DNA from: Hydrolagus colliei
Taxonomy: Eukaryota
Length of the DNA stretch: 64,000 bases
NCBI GenBank assembly: GCA_035084275.1
Contig: CM068742.1
Coordinates: 93,124,001 to 93,188,000, forward strand
Direction of reading: 5' to 3'
The notes under the pieces are model-generated. The model was not told where the DNA came from, did no database searches, and was given only the letters and a program-made list of their open reading frames with translations. Both the position numbers and the translations under genes were made by a program. Below, one piece after another: positions 3,306-27,671 of this stretch. Positions within the stretch are counted from its first letter, which is position 1, and each line of letters begins with the position of its first letter.

Positions 3306-3916
3306 GAACGATAAGCAAAATCACTCATTCCTAGAAATACAAATAGACGCTACTCGTAAATAAATAGCTCTGATGGCTCAGTTGCTAAAGATAAGGTCCA
3401 TGTGACCTGAACGTACCAATTAGGAAGGTTTCAGATTCTGTGACTGGTTTTGTGGTCATCTAGTTGCTTAAAACTGGGGTCGCAGTTGGTCACTATAATT
3501 GACCTCTGGATTTCTAGACTAGGGAGTGGAAAGAAATAAAGATTTCCTCCTCCTGTTCACTGTATAGTGACATCTGCTGGAATGTATAGATATAATTGAG
3601 ATTGCTGACAAGAACATGATTGAGCGTGGCTATGATGTTGCCAACACTCGCTGCTTTAGTTATCCACTTGAAGAATGGTTACTGAGGTAATGTCGGATCA
3701 AATGGCATCAAGAGAGGCAATCCAACCCAAGGCATTTAAGAACAAATATTTGTATAATCTGCAATCTGTAATTACTCTGTAATGTTGAGAATCAAGGTAG
3801 AATTAGCTCTAGTTTTGTATCAAATTAACAGGAACACAGAGTATGAATAGGGTGTTAATTGAAGGAAACAAATGGTCAAATCTCAACTGAGTTATGAGTG
3901 GAGGGGTAAAGCTAAC

Positions 3917-4081
3917 CTCACTCTGCTCACTGTCACTTTTCAGGACAGTTCTCTTTAAGACTTTTGAATACTCATCGCCATCTTCAATTGTGATCGGTTT
4001 CTGCTCTTCCCCTTGCATTACCATCTCCTCCGTTTCAATACCATCAGGTGAAACTATGCGTCTGATGATCTTCCTGGTAAT
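3917..4081 (-). CDS. ANK2: ANK2 exon, 165 nt ([14 protein letters not shown]...KSDSEQSE), obscurin-binding region
   Basis: tgtcag|ATT...GAG|gttagc; phase 0/0. Confidence 0.95.
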
Positions 4082-4820
4082 CTGACAAAATAAAAAAGGA
4101 AACAAGTGGTGTATACATGTACAACATTTTTACAGTAACTTTGCACGTTGAATAGTTTCACATGCAATTCCTGTCAAATTTACTGTTTTCTGGAGGAAAC
4201 CTGGCCGTTGCAGCAACACGGTGCTAAATACACATAAGGTGAATGGCTAAAGGGCATGAGCAGAAACACGTTCTCTTATTGACTGGTATCAGGGGATCTT
4301 TGGTACCCACAAGATCACTAGACTGGTTTAAATAAAGGCGGATCCAGTCTCATCCTCCTTGAACAAGCGCTCCAAGACGCCGTCTGACATGGAGGGCGTT
4401 ATATAAATTGAAGTTGTTGTTGTTGAACACCCAACGTCCCATCCTGCCATCAGAGCATCAAGCTTTTTTTCTAAAATAAGTCCAGTGTCCTGGCCGCAAC
4501 CACACTACTTGGCAACTTGTTCCATTTGTTCATTATCCGCCAAGTGAAGGAAAACTGGTAAACTGCCCTGAAATTTGCCTTTACATATCTAATCCCAAGT
4601 TCTCCAGTTCTACTATCTTAATGCAGACTAAATTATTGATCTGGGCTTAGCTCTCCAATCTCATTTAACATTTTCTACATCCCTATGAGGTTGCTTCTGA
4701 GTCACCTTCTCCACTTGAAACACAAAAAACAGACCACGGTTTGATGTCTATCTGAACAATGGCACATCTGATAATACAGCACTAGCTCAGCATTGCATTG
4801 CTGTGTGATCTTGTAGAGTC

Positions 4821-5118
4821 CTGTAGCTCAGCGCTTAGCGCACTCGCCTTGCAAGCGAGAAACATGGGTTCAATTCCAGGCAGGGCAAAACTTTGGCAAG
4901 TATCCCTATTCCAAATGCCTAATAACAATCCCTCAAAAAATTAATAAATTGGTCAATTCAATCAATGACGGTTTGTGGGACACTGCTGTGTGCAATTGAC
5001 TGCCGCGTTCATCCACAAACATATGATCAATTCACTTTACAGTATATTCTGTGAAGGGCTTTGAGACGTCTGGAAGATATGAAAAAAGCTATATCAAATG
5101 GAAGGATTATTATTATTA
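4821..5118 (+). mobile_element. Full-length tRNA-derived SINE
   Basis: A-box tagctcagcg, B-box ggttcaattcc, Deu-like 3' core, L2-like tail with (tta)n. Confidence 0.85.
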
Positions 5119-5534
5119 TCATCTTAGACTATGTGCTCAAGTCCCAATGTGGGTCATAATCCATACTGTACAAACACACACTCTTACATAAGGGGAATAC
5201 TCAGTAATTTGGTTTGGACACTTAACAATGGTGATAGGTTTCTATTAGACACCTGGCTAGCTGACCAAAATAAGACAACCCACAACCCCTCTGACCAACA
5301 ACAACAACAAATTTACATTTCAAGAGCGCCTTTCACTTCTGGAGGACCAGAGCCAATAGTGCTATAAATGGCACCACCACACATTCTCTTCATCTATTTA
5401 TTTGACAGCACCAATAAGCATCACTTTGCTTTTTAATCATCAAGTCAAAAGGTAGATTGCCTCCTTGTCCCTGCCTAGGTATAATTAAAGAAAAGAAGGA
5501 TATACAGATTTTATTCGCCTCACTAATGCAATAC

Positions 5535-5618
5535 CTTTTTCACAACAATATTTCCATGTTCATCTGTATATTGTTCTTCTGTTACTGTCTCTGGTAGAAG
5601 ATCAGGCATGTCATCAGC
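5535..5618 (-). CDS. ANK2: ANK2 exon, 84 nt ([28 protein letters not shown])
   Basis: cctag|GCT...AAG|gtattg; phase 0/0; conserved ankyrin VTEEQ.TDE.GNIV.KK motif. Confidence 0.95.
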
Positions 5619-7106
5619 CTAGGAAGTGAATTGCATTATTAATACTTTTACTTGGATAACCTAGAATGTATACTATATTTTTAAAAAGTTCTATGGGGCC
5701 AGAAATGCAAGCTATAACAGGATTGAAAAGTAATTTGTAAATGCTGAATATTTCTAGTAATCAGGTGTGCCTCTCACCAAGCCACAGAAATTCTTCTCTG
5801 AATCAAATTGCTTCCAAATCCTTTACAAACTCTGCTGTGAAATCCGCATTTTTTGACCACCTTGTAACGATTTTATTGGGAAGAAGGGAATTCATGCTGG
5901 TTTTCACTTTATCCACTTTAACCTCTAAATACCAATATTGCTTGCATTTGTTTGATAGTGCCTTGTCACACTGAAACAAGTTACAGGGCTTTACACAACG
6001 ACTTGAATGAACTAAAGTGATTGTTGCTTTGTAGGCAAATGTAGCTACTAATTTGTAGCGTAAATACCTCACAACATGGCTCATAAACATTTGTAATCTT
6101 TTTGTGAATTTGGATGAAAGAAGATTATTTGCAGGGGATATTGACCACATCTTATTCAAAATAAATCAATGGGAGCTTTAACACCAGAATAGATGGGAAG
6201 AACCTTGAGTTGATCTCTCTTCTAAAAGACAGCACTTCCGACACTTCCCTTAGACTCCCATAGGACTGTCATTTGCAAAATGTCTTAACTCTGACCATTT
6301 ACGTTAAATGGGATTTTTCAGCCTAACGTTGTGATCAGTCGATGTCCAATGCGTGGCTTCTTAGCTCAACCATTAAAAAAAAGTCATGAAATCAATGGCT
6401 GAACTCTCACTAAGTTGCATTTTTCCAACACGTTTTAATTACCATCACCAGTGTTAATTCACACATCACACACTGCAAGTTTCACCCAAAGACACTAAAG
6501 GAAGATTTGAAGCTTGGAACACTCTGTAAACAAAAAAACGCAACTCTCAACAAGCTGTTGTTGTTTTTTCAAAGAGAGTGGAGCTCTTACCACCTGGTGT
6601 CTGCATTAGCTGAAAAACAGAAGCCTAGTATGGTCTCTGCACATGTAATTTCCTTTCTTGTTTCTAATCTTTAGGGCTCTTTGTGTCAAGAGCCACGGAA
6701 AGGTAGACTTACTGACTGAGGTCCATTCTTCTTTTATGGTTACACACAACGTTTTGATTAAATTTATGTCAAGACATTCAGGAAAATCACAAGAGACTTC
6801 ATGGGTATGCTCCATAGGAATGGGCACTCTGCATACTAAGGCACAACAAAATAAATCTCAAGCGTAGGCAAGAATTACGTCCTATGACTTTAAACTGTAA
6901 AATTTATCAAAGTAAAAATTCCAACCAGTGGCAAGAGCTACAGCCACACACAACATGCCACACACAATCCTAACATGCATTATTGAATAAGCGTGGGTAT
7001 TTAAATGTATTTAAGGCAACTACGGTCTAAATCCAGAACTGGTGCAATCCATCGTTACTTTTGTGTTGATTTAAAGGCAGAATCCAGCATTCCTCCCACT
7101 GGGTAC

Positions 7107-7196
7107 CTGAATGATAACCCGTCGCCGGATGACCCGAGTAGTTACAGTCTCCTCATCTGAACTGGTCTCCACTTCCCCCAGTTCTTCTGCTATCTC
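7107..7196 (-). CDS. ANK2: ANK2 alternative exon, 90 nt, obscurin-binding-type (EIAEELGEVETSSDEETVTTRVIRRRVIIQ)
   Basis: caccag|GAG...CAG|gtaccc; phase 0/0; TTRV.RRRV motif shared with muscle ankyrin isoforms. Confidence 0.9.
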
Positions 7197-7514
7197 CTGG
7201 TGAAGGCAGGTAAGCAGACAGGATTGCAAAAGCTGACAGACTTGAACCCCTCCCCACATTATTAATCGCCATAGGTTTATTTGTTTTAGGTCTGCAATTT
7301 GTTATAATCTATTTTCGAGTGAAAGGTTATTTTATATCATCTGTAGATTGATTCAAAATGCTGGATTCTTGGTCCAGCCTTCAAAATCTGCATCTTCTGT
7401 CACCTGAGCTCCGTTTCAGTCATTTTCTGTGATTTTCTTGTGAAGAGCAAACATTTCTGCTAATAGTATCTTTGCCACAAGATAACAATAGCAACCTGAC
7501 TGCAAAATACTGCT

Positions 7515-7815
7515 GGAAATCTGACGAACGGTCAAGGACCCAAAACTTTGACTCACTTTCCTTTCTCCATAGATGCTGTCTGACCTGCTGAGTGTTCCCA
7601 GCGATTTCAGATTTGGTTTCAGATTTCCAGCATCTGCAGTATTTTGCATTTTTGTTTACTTTTGATTCACTACCACTTCTCTTGTAGGAATGCTTACCTT
7701 GAAGAAGTTTTGCACTTCTGACGAAGGGTCATGAACCCAAAATGTTCACTCACTTTCTTTTCTCCATAGATGCTGCTTGACCTGCCGAGTGTTCCCAGTG
7801 ATTTCTGTTTTTGCT
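7515..7815 (+). mobile_element. Penelope-like terminal repeat, two direct copies
   Basis: Two copies of ctgacgaa.ggtc...cccaaaa...actcactttc.tttctccatagatgctg..tgacctgc.gagtgttcccag starting at 7521 and 7718. Confidence 0.55.
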
Positions 7816-7962
7816 TTTTAAATGATTGTTTCCTGGATTTACAGGCAAGTTTATCTCCTATTCTTGGTCACACCAAGACCCAAGTACAGTCAACCTGCTC
7901 ATAGGCTTCCTTAATTATTGCTATGAACTGGTCACTAGAATCGAGCCCACAACTTGTTCCTA

Positions 7963-8363
7963 CAGTAAAAGCTTGGTTATCTAGCACCCTCAGGACATGA
8001 CCAGTGCCATTTAATCAAATATTCCGGATATTCGAATGGCAAGTTGCTGAAAATCCTACGCAAAAAATTTACTTATTTTAAAACATATCATATTAATAAT
8101 AGACTAAGTAATAACAGAATATTGTATGGATACTTACCAACAAAGCATTCCAGCAACTCAGTAAAAGGATTGGTAGAATAAAAATTCCAGCGATCGTTAA
8201 GTTTAAGAAGTGCGCATGCGCATGCATGCGCAAAGTGAGCAAAGTGAGTGTTCCGGATGGCTCCAGTATGAGATCCGTTTGCTGGAATGGTAAATTGTAT
8301 TGGGAAATATCGGTTGGTTGAGAGTTCCGGTTGGTTGGGTGCCAGATAAACAACGTTTTACTG
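7963..8363. mobile_element. Tigger-like MITE
   Basis: TIRs cagtaaaagcttggttatctagcacc / ggtgccagataaacaacgttttactg; TA flanks at 7961-62 and 8364-65. Confidence 0.85.
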
Positions 8364-8812
8364 TATTATGCACCACAGCTTGGACTGTCCACAGTCAGCC
8401 TGCTCTAAATAAAAACCAAGCTTTCCTTCCACACTCTTGATGGTAATTTTTCTCATGCTTTGCTGAGTAAGAGAACACCAGAAAATAATGCCACAAAACC
8501 TAGTCAGAGATATGTTTTTTTCTTTAAGAAGTATCATTCTACTGAGAAGATAGCTCCGAGCCACAACTACGGTTGGGAGAGGAACATCCAATGCTTTTTG
8601 TGGTGGAGATAAGACCTGCTTCTGTCTGGCTTGCTCTCCTGAGAAGAATCTCTGCATCAGTTAAAAACCAAATGCCTGATGCATGAATAGAATTGGCATC
8701 CATTGGCAGAAAATCAAATTACGATGGCCTTTGCCTGGTACAAATAGACAAACTAAACCATCATGTGCTGTGTTACTCTTCCTATTTCATAAGGGTCTTA
8801 CCACTCTATTAC

Positions 8813-9032
8813 CTTTTCAAGTGAATCCTCAATGATTCTCTCAGAGACCTGTGGATGTTCCTCTGTTGTTTCCATTATACTGGGACCAGCTGCTTGTGGA
8901 GCTTGCACTCTCTCTAACATCCGAATTTCCTCAGGCTCCTGGATAATTGGGCTTGATTCCTCTATCCTCAGTTTTATTTCTGCAGCGTCCGTCTTCTCTG
9001 GCTCCTCTTCTTCAGCCTCAGGGCTAGTCACT
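8813..9032 (-). CDS. ANK2: ANK2 C-terminal regulatory exon, 220 nt (VTSPEAEEEE...ESSPIIQEPEE...EDSLEK)
   Basis: ttcacag|AGTG...AAG|gtaata; phase 2 to 0; SPIIQEPEE motif. Confidence 0.88.
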
Positions 9033-9658
9033 CTGTGAAATAGAATTTCACAACATTGGAATATTACAATTATTTGGACATTACTGACTACAGTGGAGAT
9101 TAATGTTTAGCTTTTGGAACTCTTTCACTCCTTCTTATCCTACACCCCTGCAGTACCCGCTGGCCTCATTTAGATTCAGCCTAAACTTTAAAAACTGGTT
9201 TCCCTGCAGTTGTTAAAGAGATCTGGCTTCCAAATTAAGACAAAACTTTCCAACCTTCTGCATGATTCCATAATCTTACATTTTAAAACAATGGTCTTTA
9301 AGGCTAAGACCGTATGAAATTTTGAGCATCAACTTCCATGTCTCTAACATACTGCCGTGATGTTAAAGGCAGGAATGTTGGAGAGGCACATAATATATGC
9401 TATCCCATTAATTTCTCACTCCTTGACTGGACCCTCAGGAATTTGAATTGAGTGTTGACAGCTACCACACGAAGAACTGAAATCTCTACACACCAGGCAG
9501 GAATAGTGTTGCAATATCCCAAAACACAAGTGGAGCTATTTAATATCATAGTTCAAAGGTCATATTTACTAAACTGACTACTACAATTTGAAATAATAGC
9601 TGAAAAATGATTCAGTTCCTTTACCTAACTGTGAACCGGATGAAAGACCAAAGCTTAC

Positions 9659-17820: not shown

Positions 17821-19197
17821 GTATTCCCAGCAGACTTGGAGCACAATTTAAACTTAGATCAGCACTACTTCACTGTGTATCACACGTGTCACCTTGGGTC
17901 TTGCGATGCCTTGGGGCATCCTCCCGATGTGAAAGGCTTACTATAAATGTAATTTTGTTGTTGCTGTTTGTCACGTGTGAAATGGATTAAAATACCAAAG
18001 CTATCATTATAATCAGTGGTATTAGTCATGAATGGCTAGAGACAGTAACAGCAATCCTCCACGTTGTATTCCACAGCATAAAAACATTGAAATTAATCAG
18101 TGTTAGGTTTTGTTTTCAGGGCCTTTTGTTTTAGAAAGATTGATCACATGTTAAAATTTATCTCCTTCCTAGACAGAGTATCATATAACAATCCCAACAA
18201 TATATAAAGTAAGGTTTATGGGGCTTCCGGTGTTGACTACTCGCAGATTGAACTTGTAAACCATATACTTCAAATCCCCTCAATGCGTGTTTGTGATGGT
18301 CTTACAACTTTGGTAAAATGATTTTTTTTTGGCACTAAACTATACTAAAGAAACTATACTAAACATTTTGTATAGAGCAGCAAAACCACAATAAACCTCA
18401 ACTACGAGAAACGTATCTTAGGTTTATTGAAGAGATACAATAGAAATGTGTTTACTCCCACTCCAGACTGGTAATATCAGTATAATTAAAGCTTTGGTCC
18501 CTGTAATTTATCAACAAGGCTGGCTTTGAAGAGGCAGGATTTTTGAGTTTAAATTTTCCCAGTCTAAACGATTTTCATAAATTTACTTTGGGTTGGTCTT
18601 GACTGGAAATATTGAATTATATAAAATAAAGTAAGTAGATTGTTAAATGTATTGAAACTAGTGGTTTCAAAATGTTGTCTTTTTTTTCTGTTTCCAAAAT
18701 GATAAATTGCTCTTAGCCTTGTTTTTCAAAGTAGAAATTGAAACCTTCCTGTTGATATAGCTGGACATACGAGTTTTTATTTAAAAACTTAAGTTTTTAA
18801 GTAATTCTCACGTTTTACAACTTAACATAGAATTTTAGATTTGACAACTTCTTGTCAACAGTTTCGCTGGTTGATTGTCTTATTCCCTGCAGAAACGGGA
18901 AATCAAAACTCAAAAATGTGCGCAAGGTTGACTCCCTATGAAATATATGTGCTCCCTGATTATAGAGTTAATATTTCTTTGTCACTGTTATCATTCTGAT
19001 TGCCCATTTTTGCCTTTCCAGCTTGCCAATCTTGAGATCGGTCCAGCAGCACATCACAAAACATGAAAATCACAATGCCACAGCACAGACACTCACAAGA
19101 CCACATGATTGCAAAAGCATTAACTCAATGAACTGCAAAGCTAACTACAAGTTCTGATGTGCTAGGCCACAGAGAACTCCAGGAGATCGGCTGGTAC

Positions 19198-22100
19198 CTT
19201 CAAAGTGATCATTGCCATTTTCTTCAGGAAATCTTTCAATTTGAGTCTCAACAGACTCATCCCATATAGGCCTCATGTCAAATAAGTCTTCAGGAAGAGG
19301 TTGCTGTATTTCAGTGGGTTGCTCATTTTCAATAACAGAGCTATCTATAGTGCTACTTTCATCATCTGATAGTGCTTCATGATCTTGCTCTTCCAGTGTC
19401 AAACGTTCAACCAATTTTGAGGCCTCATCACTTATCTCTTCAAAAAATTCAATGGAATGCTTATAAAGTTCAAAAAATTTATCTGTATTGCCTTTGGCAG
19501 AAGTAGATATTGCTTGTGAACTTTGGCTAGTTTTGGTCTTGACTGGAAGTCTTGATTGGAATGGTTTTGGTTTTGTACTTTCTGGTGTTTCTGATCCAGT
19601 GTGAGTGTGGTCTGCCTGCTCTTTTACCTCTGGTTCGGTGTCACATCTCTTCCCTTTAACAGGAAGCTTGGATTTCGTCTCTGTAGAAGCAACAGTGTCA
19701 GATTCAGATTTGCTCCTGGGCTCCAGCCTTACTGGCAGTCTAGACCTGACTGACTCAGCAATCTTTTTTGTTTCAGTTTCTGCAGATGTAAAAGAGTGGT
19801 AGTCTACTTTGTGTGTACCAGCCTTAACAGGAATTCGGGATTTTGATTTGATAGTATCGTCTGCCTCACCTTCCTGTGGACTTGCTGGAGATAAGCGAGG
19901 AGGTGACTCTGCCCTCTCCTTTGAAGTCAGTGGTGCTCGAGGTACTGCTGTTACAATAGCAGTGTGTCTGACAGGAAGCTTCGATTTTGACTCTGTAACA
20001 GGAACTTGTTGGGCGACAGCAGGAGGAATTTCAATCACCGATCGTTGTTCTTCAGGAGACGAGTCTGATGAGTCGTCATCACTCTTTGCAGTTTGCTCTG
20101 AATAAATCGTCCTAGTGACTATAGAAAAATCTAACTGGACTTGAGTCATAGGTGACTCAAGGGAGGTAGGAGACTCCACATCACCATCATAAGTGAAGGG
20201 CTTTACTTCAGCCACTTCAGGCAGAACAGAATCTTTTCTTAAGGACTTGGCTGATGCAGATATGCCCATTTTGATTGGAATTCGTGACTTTTGCTCCATT
20301 TTTGTAGCTATTTGTTCATTTGAGGCATTTGACCCAATGAAAGGCTCACTGCTTGAGGCACCTGGAAGTGTTACATCTGGTACCGAGTATTGATAATGCT
20401 CGGATTCAGTCTGAGCAGCGGGAACAAGCTCAGCAAATGTCATCTCGTCCTCAGCCCCTTCCATTTGTGATGCATAAGGAAAAGAGTCATCAGCCTGGTT
20501 TTCTCCAATTTGGAAAAAATGGTAGTTTTCATCTGTGTAGTTCCTTTTGCTCATGTCAATCGCACCACTTCGGGTCATTTCAAATAGTTTCCCTTCCTGA
20601 AACAGGAAAGGATTTTGTTCATTGGTGGGTGTACCATCCTCAGTGGGGGTTCTTACAGGTGTAATATCCGGAGTTGTTCCATGGGACCGTTTATCATTCA
20701 TTGGACCAAATATTTTCTGCTCTTCCTCTTTAAGACGAGCTGCAAATGCTTCATCATCCTCTCTCAAGGTGCTCCATGTGTCTACATCGGGCTCGGCCTT
20801 AGTTATTATTATTTTGCAAAGTTCCTCTTCAGCTGTTTCTTCTGAGGGCATATCCCCTAATGTAGGCTCACTTTGGCTCAGCTGCATTTCCATGTCTGTA
20901 TTAACTTGAAGTCCTTGACGTTTGCTTTCCAACCACAATGCAGCTTTCTGTTCTGCCGTTTGCTCAAGGTGGGGAATGTCTTCCGTGGCTAGACTCGCTT
21001 CCATTTCCATCTCTGGAGCAAAAGGGGACATGTCTGAAGATTCAGTGTCTTTGGTGGAGTCACCAGTGGCTCTAAAAGAGAAGACTGCAGCAGAATCATC
21101 CAATGAACCATCAGTTTCATTACCTTCATGAGTAACAACTTTAGGCACTGATGGACACAACTCTGAGTCAGCTAGTATATTGCCTTCTGAATTCAGGTTT
21201 CTGCCTTCTTCTTTTGGGATTATATCATCTCCATCATCGGACATTTCTTCACTTGTAATTGCTTTTGTCTCCTTTTCATCTATAATCTTAAATGTATATT
21301 TTTTGTTAACTATTGGATGAAACTCAGGGTCTTCAGGGCTAGAATTACCATCACCTCCTGGTGGGATTGGAGAAGGAGGTTCCACCCGAATAACTGGATC
21401 CATAAGAAGCCCAGATTCAGCCTCTCTGCTAAGCTGGGTCAGTTCTGGTTCGCTTTCTGAAGAAGAGGAACTCTTTCTACATTCAGTATGAGATCTGAAT
21501 ATTATCTCTGCTTCATCAGCATAAGTGAGAGAAGAGGCGAAGGGCATTTCAGATTGTTTGGTTTCCTTTTTGAATTCACGCTTTATTCTCGCTTCCTCTT
21601 CCAACATATCAAATGTTTTAATTTTAGCTGCCATTTTAAACATTTCCTCTTCAGGTGTGAATCTCTTCTTTGACTCACTCTCTGTGAAATCATCGTCAAT
21701 TTCTTCTTGGATCTCTGGAATAGCAATTGGCTTTGCAGCGGCTGATAACACATGCATATCAGGGCTTTGTGGGGTAACTTCATAACTGACCTCCTCGGAG
21801 CTGGGTGTTTCAGGTGAAAGGGGGCTTTTTCCTGAACTTTCCATCTGTGATATTTGATCCAAGCTATCTTCCTCAGTACTTTCTTCTGGAGACATAACCT
21901 TCCTTGGTTCTCTACTTGGGGATCCATCTCCTTTTATGTCTCTGAAAACTCTACTCCTCACCGATACAGGATCCAAAGTAATGTCCATTCTTCCACTAGG
22001 TTTTTCAGGGAGCATTGCAGGAACTGACTTCTCTTTCTGTTGTGCCATGAAAATAGCTGCACTTAGCTTGTGTTCCACGGGACTACTTTCAAGAGAGTCT

Positions 22101-25014
22101 GGGCATGGCGATTCTTTAATGGGGCTTGGTTCAAGTGAATCTGGGGATTTGTGTGAAAATGTGTCAACATCATCTTGCATGGGACTAGCCTCAAGGGAAT
22201 CTTTATGACTGATGGTCAGAGATTCATCTCCCATTGGACTTAGACTGTCAGTGTCAAGAGACACTCCAGTAAGAGAAAGTTCCATTCCGTGATTTCTTGC
22301 TGTGGATTCTGGTACAACTGGAGGTTTAACTGATGAAACCTTTTCTCTATGGTTTTCTTCTTTCGACTCTGGAGAGGTCTGATCATTCAACATTTTTTCA
22401 GTACCAGATTCTCTCACCATTCTTCTTGGCATAGGAACAGGGAATTTGGAGTCTTTGTCTTTGGACTTGCTATCTGGTGAAATGTCATGCCTGTCAAGTG
22501 GTTCTGCTTGCATAACAGTGTCTGAAGGCGTACAGGTAGTTTCACCACTGATATAATCTACATGTAAAACATTGTCTGTTTTAAGGACAGAGACTGATTC
22601 ACTTGTGGTCTGTTCGTCCACATCATCTTGAGTCATTTCCATTGATTGTAATTCATCAAATACTACGCAGCCAGAATCTACAGTAAGGTCATTATCGGTG
22701 GTATCAAAGGACTCTTGCGTTGCTACTGGTTCAGTTGAGCCAACATTGTGAGTTTCTGATAATACATCTGCTTCCTTCTGAGATCCTATGGCAGTCACTG
22801 CAAGATTATCATTTATGCTAGATTTAATTTTATTGGAAGAAACATCATTTTTCAGACTTGCAGAATTGTCGATCGGTGGTGTTGAAGATTCATTAATCGT
22901 AATCGGTTGATCCTCACTCACTATTTTAGCAACATTTGCAGTATTGTTTTTGTCCAGAACTGGCTCTTCAGTTTTCTTGGGTGAAAGGGACAAACTTTCA
23001 GGGCTTGTTTCTGGAGTCTCAGCAAGACCTTCATGTTTATAACTCTCCTCTGAGCTGATTTGAGGTGTCCCATCACCTAAGCTAAAACTGGGAGAGTCAG
23101 CGATGCCTTCATGTTTTAGGCTTTCTGAGCTGTCATCAAGAGCACCATTTGACAAACCTGTGTCTGACAGAAATGCATCCTTCACATATTCCTGTGGGAA
23201 ACTAATGTTTAGCTCATGTTGAATAGGACTTGTTGCAACTTGCTCCAAGTAAACTTCTGTTTCTTGAGTATCTAACGTTTTCTTAAACTCTTGATATTTG
23301 TCATTATCTTCCAACTCCTCCTTTATGACATCACTAAAATCAGTGGAAGTCTTTCTGTCTGGACTGATCTGTAAATCACTATCATGATGGTCTTCACTAC
23401 TCACAAACATTTTGCTTTGCCTTTCAAGATCTTCAGCAAAGACTAATTTAGAATTATCCACTTTAGAACACACATCATGTTTGTCAACAGATATTATGAT
23501 GGCTTGTGTATCTTTGGTTGAAGGTATTTGGATTTTTTCTTGAGATTGAACTGAACAGATCATTTCTGTGGTTGTTTCATCCACATCAAGTGGAATTTGG
23601 GTAATCTCAATTTTTCCGCTGTGGTCTCTGTGCATCTCTGACTGATGTACTTCTGATGAAAGTTCTACCACATCTGCTTGCGCTCCTCCAGCAACTTTGT
23701 CTGTGGGCAAATACGTTCCTTTACGGTCATTGTAAGACACTTTAGACTTATTTGATTCCTCCAAATCTTGGCTCTCTGGTAGTGAAGTAACAGATAAGTG
23801 CTGAAAGAGTCGATTCATTTTCTTGGACGGATCTTGTCCTGACTGAAAAGCTTTCATGAGTTCGCGCACTGACATAGTCTCTTCCAGTCTTTCTGTCACG
23901 GTGGGGGGAACCAGGGGTTCTTCATTGTGTGGCACATGTTTACTCGTTGTTATTGAAATCTCTTCCTTTCCAGAAACTTTTGTTTGTTTGCGCTGGCCTT
24001 CCTCTGCTTCTACACGTTTCTGAAGAGCCTTCACCTTCTCTTTTATGGAACCTATGGGAGTTTCTTCCACCAAAGGTGAGGTAGCATCTGAAATAGGTGG
24101 AGGTGCTAATGTGGTTTGTTTCAATGACTCACTGACATCAGATCTAATGGTAACTTCATGCTGCATTTTTCTAACCTCTGTCCTCGTTTCAATAGCTGAG
24201 CCTTCAAGTAGAGGATCTTTAAAAGATATTGCCAGGCTTCCTTCCATGAATCTCTGAAGCACTGGTTTTGTTTTACTGGGTTCTGATATAGTTTGGTCTT
24301 TTGTCTTCTGTGGCACCTCCAGTTCTTTCTTTGCCACTGAGCCTACAGACTCTGAGATAACCTTATAAGTTCCACTGTTAACATCCTTTGTAACAATAAC
24401 AGCATCAAACCTCTCTTGAACAATATCTGCTTGGCAGACAGTTGCAGGTGCATTGTCTTTATGCTGTTTTAGATACACCCCTAGGTCCTCGGACAAATAA
24501 TTCAACATTCCACTTATGTCTTTCTCTTTCTTTACTGTCTTTGACAGTGTTCCCCGGTCAACTTTACACTCTACAAATGGAGGTTCAAAGACATCTGCTG
24601 GCACATTTTTCTTAACTTCTTCGATTTCTTCATCGCTAAGAATAACCCAGTCTTCACTTGGTTCTTCACATCTTCCACCACCAGCTGCTGCTTTCCTAGA
24701 TTTTTCACCTTCGTACCTTCCACTTCTTAAGATTTCACTCACTATCTCCAAATCTTCCTTCACTTTTTCTACAATTTCAAATGGTTCTCCTGGTTCGTCT
24801 TCATTTTCCTTTCCTACCTCCTTTACCTCTACTGGGCTTCCTTTACCTGTTGCCGTCGAGTCTGTTTTTAAGAGCTTAGTCACCTTGATCAAATCTTGTT
24901 TCATGTCAGACACATCTGAAAGCAAATCTGGGCTTGCTAGTACGGGGATATCATGAACCAGATGAGATTTTATTGCTGCAGAAATCTCAATGGATTCGGT
25001 CCCCTCTTCTTCAT
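19198..25014 (-). CDS. ANK2: ANK2 giant neuronal exon, 5817 nt (1939 codons; giant ankyrin-B insert)
   Basis: Open frame in register with the 1926-aa ORF; acceptor atgaag|ATGAAGAAG, donor GAAG|gtacca; phase 1/1. Conserved blocks: [74 protein letters not shown]. Confidence 0.95.
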
Positions 25015-27671
25015 CTTCATTTTTAACAAAAACATTTAAATAAAAAAATGGGATTCAAAAAACAGAGATTGGAAAATGTAATCAGGGATGACACAATACA
25101 GAGTCTTTAGCTGAAATGGTGGGTCAAAAATAAAACATGGATTTGGATGGTAGGTCGGGTCCACATGGTCTGAGAATGGATACAATTGCAAAGCGAAGCC
25201 AACTCATAAACAGGAAAAGAAACAGGCAGGAAATAACTTGCTTTATTTTCACCAGAACACATCCACACCACGGACAACACCAAAGCAATAAACAAACTGA
25301 ATTAACCAGGATACCAACAGATCAATAAGCAGAAATAAATAAGAGCAGTGGGTTTACACAGAGATAGGCATCTCAAGATTGTTCAGATGTAACAGATTCA
25401 TGTCTAAAGAAAAAGATCAGAAACGACTGAAAGCTGATTTCCTCTTAAAGAAAGCCTGTACTAGCAAACTGTCAGAACAACATTTGTAGCTCTCTTTATT
25501 TCTACAAAATTGTAAGTAATAGGCTTATATTATTTTTAGGAGCTGGAGCTAAGAAAACCCTACAATGACATGTCGTACTATCTGAACCAGCTGCAAACCG
25601 GCATTTCAACAAGAAGAATTTCAAACCTAAATGCATAGAATAAAGAAAAAGCTATTTAAAGAAAGTAAGATTCTTTCCTTGGAACATCCTAGTTGTTCTG
25701 ACAACTAAAAAAGCTAACATTATTGCAAATAAATTAATCAAAATGGATCAACGAAAAAAGATCTATACCGAGAAGAGTTAAAAATGTAACCAATAAATGA
25801 ATTCAGAGAAAAATAATGCGGTGGATATAGCAAAATCAAAATTTTTTGCAACACTCACGCAAACACACATAACGCTTAAGCAAAGTTATTTCCATGCAAA
25901 ACTAAAGTGTTGGCAGCACTGGGCATGCAGCCTGATGTAAACGCTGGAAAATAGACATTTAACATTGTGTGGCATTGCAGTGAAGTACAGTGTTGGTTTG
26001 ATGCAGGATATTTAAAAGTGAATTCGCAGCTTTCATTAAAATTTTATTTCTATCAGAATTGGAAAGAACACTTTAAAAATAAAACAGACTTTGTCATTGC
26101 ATTGAAATAAATAAAATCTGAAGGACTGATGATTTTAAAGGTTGACATGGGATCTGTGGGTATTTTTTTGTGAAGTAAGGTGTGATTATAAACAACTATC
26201 ATTTTTATGAAAGATTTATTTATTTTATCCAAATGAAATTAACTACCTGGCATCAAGATCCTTGATTAATTTTTAATATTGTCGTTATTCGTCAATATAT
26301 TGCAAAATATTGCTATATGTACATTTACCTAAAATGGCTAGCTTTACATATCTGCATACCAATTTTGCTTAGACTTGTAAAAGGAACTCATGTACAAATT
26401 ATGTGTGAAAACAATTTACTTTTAAAAGGTAATATTTTATATTTAGAGTATCAATGCAGTTTAGAGCAAGCAAAACATTCCTCATGAATATATGAGGATC
26501 ATGCAGAGAATAGCAGAGTAATAGTAATCTTAAAAATTAAGGGGCACTGACTGAATCTTGTGTTAACTTTTACAATAAATATTATTTTGAATATTCTCAA
26601 TATTGTACCAGGATCTTCACCAAAATATATGAATGAGAAGATCCAATTCTTTTGAAATAAACGGCAATAAATCCATTCTGCTTTCTGGTATTTATTTTTC
26701 TGCAAATTCAATACATCCTTATATATTGAACATGCCAACAGAATAATTTTGCTTGCAAACTACCACTGATGATAGGGTCTTCAACAGACTCAAGGGGCAT
26801 TTGGTGGATAGACTAGCGATTATCAATACTAACGATAATTTCAACGCTAATCGATTTTCAGGAATATTAATAGGTTAATTAGGTTAATTTAAGCACTCTG
26901 ATACACTACCGTGTGTGGAGGTGCTGTATAAGTGTAAGTTGTTGTTGTAATTATATTTAAGGACAAAACTGAGCTGGGCACCAAAGACTGTAAAATAATT
27001 CTCATAATTCTTGCATTTGATGCAACACCTTCCATGGTGAGTGAATGTCACTGGAATTACAGTTGCAATGACTGTGTAATTTGTGGGTGAAGTCAGAATA
27101 GTTTTTGATAACTTCTGTAATGTAATGTAAGTAATGTAAAAATGCCCAAATAATGGAATAACCCACCAAATGCTCCTGTCCTACTATCATTTTACTTTTG
27201 TAATTGTGCACAGGTTTGGGTTTGTGTTTTTAAATGTAAAAGAGACCAAACTGTACTTCACGACAGCAGCAGTTGCCATTGTGATATTTAAACATTCATT
27301 TGAACTAAATGGAGATAAATGTCAAGTGAGACATGGGAATAGCCATGTCTTCTACTCATCAAAGAGTAAGAAAGTTAACAAGACAAACATGAAGAACTGA
27401 AAGGATTTCATAATGAGTGCAACAGGCACAGCAGGACTATAAGGGATGTCAAAGGAAAATGAATACTTAGATGATAAAATTCAATTCAGTATTAATACTC
27501 TATAAATACTATAACAAACCATTATGTGGTTAGAAATTTAACAGTTGTTAATTTGAATTACTGTTACTTCTAAAAGCATTAATAACAAATTGTTAAATTG
27601 GTTTAAATCTTTCACACACTTATGCTGATCCTCATAATTTTTTTTAATATAAGGATAGAAAAGGTTCTTAC

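Follow-up and report, generated by a model that had tools for sequence, protein, structure and literature searches.

The window analysed here, a 64,000-nucleotide stretch of Hydrolagus colliei DNA, contains on its minus strand an ankyrin gene, represented by its 3' half, and the frame of one of its obscurin-binding exons stays open upstream as far as an ATG at 7259. A sequence-only reading had proposed that this ATG begins a small ankyrin-2, made from an internal start in the manner of the sAnk1.5 product of ANK1, and the question is whether the 21 codons between the ATG and the exon are such a leader or the end of an intron. On the best reading, the site shows no more than that sharks and amniotes have in common the ANK2 obscurin-binding cassette exon, its regulated inclusion and its acceptor sequence. 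The real feature here is this already known cassette exon, and the small-isoform reading of the leader is weakly supported.

The exons of Heterodontus ankyrin-2b isoform X9 (P0002) align collinearly with the window by tblastn, most of them at 53-98% identity, and Callorhinchus ankyrin-1 (P0202) matches the window exons at 41-74%. By this similarity, in a comparison of ANK2 with ANK1, the gene is a cartilaginous-fish (chondrichthyan) ANK2. The earlier assignment to ANK2 with an obscurin-binding exon agrees with the tblastn result and with the internal position of that exon in horn-shark and bird ANK2. Of the exons on the minus strand, the upstream ANK2 exon of 220 nt (8813-9032) splices to the acceptor at 7196 or to that at 5618. 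The first of these opens the 90-nt, phase 0 cassette exon (7107-7196, CAG/GT ends), which encodes the first obscurin-binding module (EIAEELG...TTRVIRRRVIIQ), and the second opens an 84-nt exon (5535-5618, AG/GT ends) encoding a portion of the obscurin-binding region. A 165-nt exon follows (3917-4081, AG/GT ends), with the second obscurin-binding module, by similarity, at its start, and then a 180-nt exon (2606-2785), a 92-nt exon (654-745) that puts the last exon into the long frame, and the last coding exon itself (21-204, acceptor at 204), which reads DDHE-stop in phase 0 or a tail of about 60 residues. This last exon is used in two frames: the ~60-residue tail after the 92-nt exon is the C-terminus of Heterodontus X9, and both the DDHE-stop and the long-tail endings are also present among the mammal-like proteins fetched. 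A 1969-codon stop-to-stop frame at 19145-25054, also on the minus strand, lies between the UPA-region and death-domain exons; it is missing from the 1992-aa Heterodontus isoform and is likely the giant ankyrin-B exon.

The T-R-V-[IV]-R-R-R-V module is present in the internal, in-frame 90-nt exon, which is likewise internal in Heterodontus ankyrin-2b X9 and in bird and turtle ANK2. When longer proteins were searched with the 51-aa query, all of the matches (16/16) were long ANK2 proteins in which the exon is internal and follows directly after the upstream exon. Four of the seven runs listed were aligned to 3800-9100 at 80% likeness, in tables dominated by repeats: X1, X2 and X3 are contig sets, presumed to be RNA, from one relative (organism A) whose introns are about 89% alike, and X5 is a raw single-cell run that agrees with the window at most listed positions. 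Record 13 of X3 has exactly 174 nt between the 8813-9032 exon and the exon that starts at 4081; this spacing equals the 90-nt plus the 84-nt exon, and the acceptor at 7196 is therefore used. Partial inclusion is implied in X2 by a depth of about 11-12 over the exon versus 21-27. In X1 the flanking exons stand at depth 731-741 and both cassette-exon bins are accounted for by a single unspliced, intron-spanning contig (17.9), which indicates skipping of the exon in that run; expression level is poorly gauged by contig depth, and contigs lose rare forms. The exon is alternatively spliced, with inclusion and skipping both represented in the relative's transcript contigs and, by extension, presumably in this species. 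Two studies (PMC3575540, PMC12812942) describe splice variants of ankyrin-B that have either one obscurin-binding domain or two, and a requirement for both domains in M-band targeting of mammalian ankyrin-B. Extrapolating from mouse (PMC3575540), inclusion of the exon would give a long ankyrin-B with two obscurin-binding modules that is targeted to the M-band, and by analogy 7196-7107 is predicted to bind obscurin and to direct ankyrin-B there.

The leader is positioned immediately upstream of this exon, on the minus strand at 7197-7259, and is most likely intron. Its basic description was accurate: the ATG at 7259-7257 (context ttaataATGt) has A at -3, 7259-7107 reads 51 residues without a stop, and the frame is open from a TAA at 7304-7302 down to 7071. 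The downstream arithmetic also holds, leader and exon joined to the 84-nt, 165-nt and last (DDHE-stop) exons giving 138 aa in total. Two of the caveats raised at the outset apply to this same stretch. The first is that 13 nt before the leader ATG another ATG, at 7272, lies out of frame, with C at -3 and G at +4; it opens a 39-codon ORF (7153-7272, minus strand) that overlaps the leader ATG and ends at the TGA at 7155-7153 within the exon. The second is the overlap with the 3' splice-site region (7197-7232, minus strand), a 34-nt AG-free zone plus the AG that is 72% pyrimidine over its 36 nt and includes YGCY motifs at 7216 and 7208 and a branch-like CTTAC at 7214, all with putative splicing roles.

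The last 12 leader codons, including two of the three cysteines, fall inside this AG-free pyrimidine tract, and their richness in Leu, Ser, Cys and Thr would follow from the tract itself. Conservation of the acceptor sequence would likewise make the last 6-7 codons look conserved. Of the read-through ORFs of ANK2 that are mammal- or bird-like, 15/15 reach the acceptor as L-[APT]-C-F-H-Q and 0/15 open with MW, with taxa assigned by likeness to named proteins, many near-duplicates in the set, and 6/15 reaching fewer than 21 residues upstream where the gene caller cut them. The upstream frames of three teleost ANK2 models are also without MW, so that the leader is missing from 18/18 bony-vertebrate ANK2 upstream frames fetched (15 amniote-like and 3 teleost, some short or near-duplicate). 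Because the L-x-C-[FL]-H-Q end recurs in amniote-like frames that have no MW, the C-terminal likeness of the leader to small ankyrin-1 (sAnk1) is explained by the splice site; the splice site does not account for the N-terminal likeness. The 63 nt before the exon are thus probably an intron end with a chance resemblance at a conserved acceptor and no separate small-protein start, and the ATG-TGG further upstream would be a chance event with odds of roughly 1 in 50-100. A second CAG lies in frame at 7234-7233 (minus strand), 36 nt upstream of the acceptor, and its use would add 12 residues; no read evidence for it was seen. Several mammal-like ANK2 read-through frames (P0174, P0178, P0179, P0181, P0184 and P0203-P0207) contain a Met in frame at 7-8 codons from the acceptor on its upstream side and a further Met inside the exon.

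The leading alternative is a real small ankyrin-2, in which an internal promoter (E-boxes and the TATA at 7336) would start transcripts near 7305 and leaky scanning past 7272 would yield a protein of 138-198 aa; we judge this unlikely. The companion proposal, that its 21-residue, three-cysteine N-terminus would hold the membrane by acylation or as an amphipathic helix rather than by spanning it, with a tail that binds obscurin like that of sAnk1.5, is doubtful to a similar degree. In favour of the small ankyrin-2 stands the likeness to sAnk1. Proteins of the sAnk1 type were found by profile search in mandrill, turkey, alligator lizard, paddlefish and a mammal-like record (among the best 150 of 271 matches), and three from sturgeons were added through clusters of similar proteins; the start of the mandrill protein matches the ank1.5 primer printed in PMC2172649. 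A lizard record named 'secreted frizzled-related protein 1 isoform X6' (P0120, XP_062994956.1) opens with the full sAnk1 N-terminus, and its name misleads. From H-Q onward the window sequence is identical to the lizard sAnk1-type protein at 23/38 residues, in keeping with the proposed paralogy of the exon with that of ANK1. Callorhinchus long ankyrin-1 (P0202) uses the homologous acceptor, joining straight to ELDKELG; long ANK1 thus splices into an acceptor that the short forms have within their first exon, so the dual-use design that had been invoked for ANK1 is real and offers the small ankyrin-2 a precedent.

The leader itself has MW, V-x-Q-L-L and a final H-Q in common with sAnk1 leaders, such that both of its ends align (MW..QLL and L/I-H-Q) and the hydrophobic middle is absent. 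In simulations that held the acceptor fixed and drew the upstream sequence from the window, the N-terminal sAnk1-like score was reached by 0.6-1.5% of acceptors (127-295 of 20,000 per setting), either of two scores by 344-565 of 20,000 (1.7-2.8%), and an in-frame MW occurred in 0.7-0.9%; among intronic ATG frames 14/1066 attain the leader's N-terminal score, all of these resemblance scores having been picked after the likeness had been seen. The N-terminal likeness occurs at precisely the exon that has a leader of this kind in the paralogue, which is a modest argument against chance. Against it, an Oryzias ank2 gene model, T-rich upstream and without MW, scores 15.0/19.2 versus 15.0/15.5 for the leader, and a score that is equally high without MW is therefore not specific. 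The BLASTP alignment with the lizard sAnk1-type protein runs only from residue 15 on and excludes the first 14 residues.

The leader is also short and polar for a membrane anchor, as had been cautioned. The sAnk1 leader is 42 residues long in 8/8 proteins fetched, from sturgeons to primates, and by simple hydropathy scales the five of these leaders that were scored reach a best 19-residue Kyte-Doolittle mean of 2.3-3.0 and an insertion-scale sum of -0.6 to -3.2. The corresponding values for the 21-aa window leader are 1.22 and +6.4, and with a hydrophobic moment of at most 0.37 it has no transmembrane-grade stretch, which speaks against a small ankyrin-2 as do its halved length and the overlapping ORF from 7272. 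The Cys/Leu richness of the proposed shorter anchor is mostly the acceptor pyrimidine tract. In favour of a small ankyrin-2, sAnk1.5 without its transmembrane part still gets to the M line (PMC2172649).

The TATAAAA reported for the putative promoter is present (7330-7336, minus strand), 77 nt from the leader ATG and thus at a plausible spacing, although the probability of a TATAWAW in 130 nt is about 12%. Minus-strand E-box hexamers occur at 7343-7338 (CAGATG) and 7406-7401 (CAGGTG); as PMC12776320 describes two MYOD sites in the human sANK1 promoter, this pair counts for a small ankyrin-2, but E-boxes are not enriched over the window background (3 observed versus 2.2 expected in 420 nt). No match to a MEF2 or CArG consensus was found in the putative promoter region. 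An ATG lies upstream and in frame at 44 of the window's 153 pseudo-acceptors, opening at least 15 codons at 27 of them and with a -3 purine as well at 16, and when a TATAWAW 20-150 nt upstream is added 1/153 remains, which is probably the tested site itself, since that site has all of these features. An open frame, a Kozak purine and a TATA are each common by chance; their combination at 1/153 weighs modestly against the chance reading.

Comparison with the relative bears on the same region. An unspliced contig is about 89% alike over 5591-7279 and resumes at 7826, and its 250 intervening letters equal the length of the window stretch minus the stretch at 7520-7816, just upstream of the putative promoter, where an interspersed repeat is present as two copies of 100 nt that are 85% alike. 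No more than about 40 nt of 7340-7516 lies at the relative's contig depth (at 80% likeness, short pieces possibly dropped), which leaves the promoter region mostly unaligned; a core promoter that functions should presumably align no worse than bulk intron, and this argues against a small ankyrin-2. The contig is also 2-3 nt shorter somewhere within 7163-7279. Read depth is very high at 7517-7870, and 8048-8401 has high X5 depth with almost none in the relative's contigs, which suggests that 7520-7816 and 8048-8401 are lineage-specific insertions.

The runs showed no leader-specific contig and no listed start pile-up near 7300 in X1, X2, X3 or X5, at low depth and with tissue unrecorded, and this includes X3, where the exon is included. 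In X3 the bin 7163-7339 has a depth of 7.55, where the exon together with two ambiguous letters would by itself give 7.53, and in X2 no depth is left beyond the exon. X5 has an implied depth of 3.3-4.8 over 7197-7339. Eleven intron bins average 1.5, so this is a 2-3-fold excess and speaks slightly against the chance reading; the intron immediately preceding the 84-nt exon, for which no start is proposed, has 4.2-6.1 implied and 4-7 read directly. Among the positions listed for X5, begins or ends pile up at 4026 only. These RNA blanks lower the likelihood of a small transcript.

Protein searches were similarly blank, with no leader-bearing ANK2 protein found (among the best 150 of 271 in the profile search). 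The 173-aa ANK2 tail gave 21 matches among proteins of 95-303 aa, none with the MW leader, and a 62-aa read-through ORF gave no candidate among proteins of 34-109 aa, a weak negative given that similar short amniote ORFs exist. Metagenome scans found nothing, Pfam held no family for the 51-mer, the PDB held one ankyrin-1 sequence that matches profile positions 26-64 only, and the best ESM Atlas score, 0.75, was uninformative. In the open-licence PMC and bioRxiv literature no small ANK2 isoform and no shark ankyrin-obscurin paper was found, and one bioRxiv entry holds 'sankb' twice. As for the proposed isoform of ~138 aa, a modest MW/QLL resemblance, with a chance of about 1-3%, speaks for it, but neither transcript, protein nor conservation support came from the searches.

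Several records that might have passed for small ANK2 proteins were set aside. The sterlet 'ankyrin-2-like isoform X10' (P0193, XP_058864400.1) is of ANK1 type despite its misleading database name, since its identity to bichir ANK1 is 74% over 121 residues and that to sterlet ANK2 49% over 70. The upstream parts of the short teleost models P0052, P0098 and P0111 are mutually discordant and without MW, and these models would be products of homology-based gene building. P0019-P0021 (162 aa, with the start Met inside the exon) are gene-caller products, and one of them clusters with a 642-aa form in which the same exon is internal.

In weighing these explanations, where probabilities are judgements rather than computed posteriors, an unreported small ANK2 begins from a low prior; its odds rise about tenfold with the likeness to sAnk1, and fall again with a leader that is half as long and not hydrophobic, an ORF that overlaps it, the negative RNA results and the lack of alignment at the promoter. 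It is correspondingly improbable that cartilaginous fishes keep a second small ankyrin from ANK2, with an internal promoter and, where sAnk1 has its transmembrane helix, an anchor of half the length that is acylated at cysteines. If they do, the exon that tethers the sarcoplasmic reticulum to obscurin would be older than the ANK1/ANK2 duplication and bony vertebrates would have lost it from ANK2, the sAnk-type first exon would be dated before the vertebrate genome duplications, and the locus would provide the first small ankyrin from ANK2 within the open-licence PMC/bioRxiv literature and a natural test of the need for a membrane-spanning anchor in the tether. Less probable still is a decayed relic of a dual-use first exon older than the ANK1/ANK2 duplication and kept a while in cartilaginous-fish ANK2, and no more credible is the subsequent loss of its promoter and of the middle of its hydrophobic segment; both leader ends do align to sAnk1 with that middle gone, and the acceptor position is identical in ANK1 and ANK2, but a sequence free of selection would hardly remain recognisable for as long as jawed vertebrates have existed, so that recent function must be assumed, no trace occurs in the amniote-like or teleost ANK2 frames fetched, and internal use is all that appears in the proteins fetched from hagfish and lamprey (P0070, P0080).

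Among the known ankyrin systems, exons 47-49 of ANK3 make up the 76-aa obscurin-binding insert (AnkG107); according to PMC4449188 the mouse Ank3 exons measure 87+84+57 nt, versus 90+84+165 nt here, and exon 47 is internal and provides no start, whereas the short forms of AnkG begin far upstream at exon 25. The sAnk1.5 first exon of ANK1 is homologous to the window exon and has a homologous internal acceptor and a leader with MW, QLL and HQ, but the window leader belongs to a different paralogue, is 21 rather than 42 residues long, has neither the hydrophobic membrane anchor nor the FFL-V-S-C-Q block, is overlapped by an upstream ORF, and has no transcript in the runs examined. The closest counterpart is the ANK2 OBD1 cassette exon of ankyrin-B, called exon 43'. 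The sole difference from it is the in-frame ATG-TGG upstream, which is missing in the other ANK2 frames fetched; the window exon comes from the same gene and place, has the same 30 codons and phase 0, and shares 80% identity with Heterodontus ankyrin-2b X9 across 35 residues.
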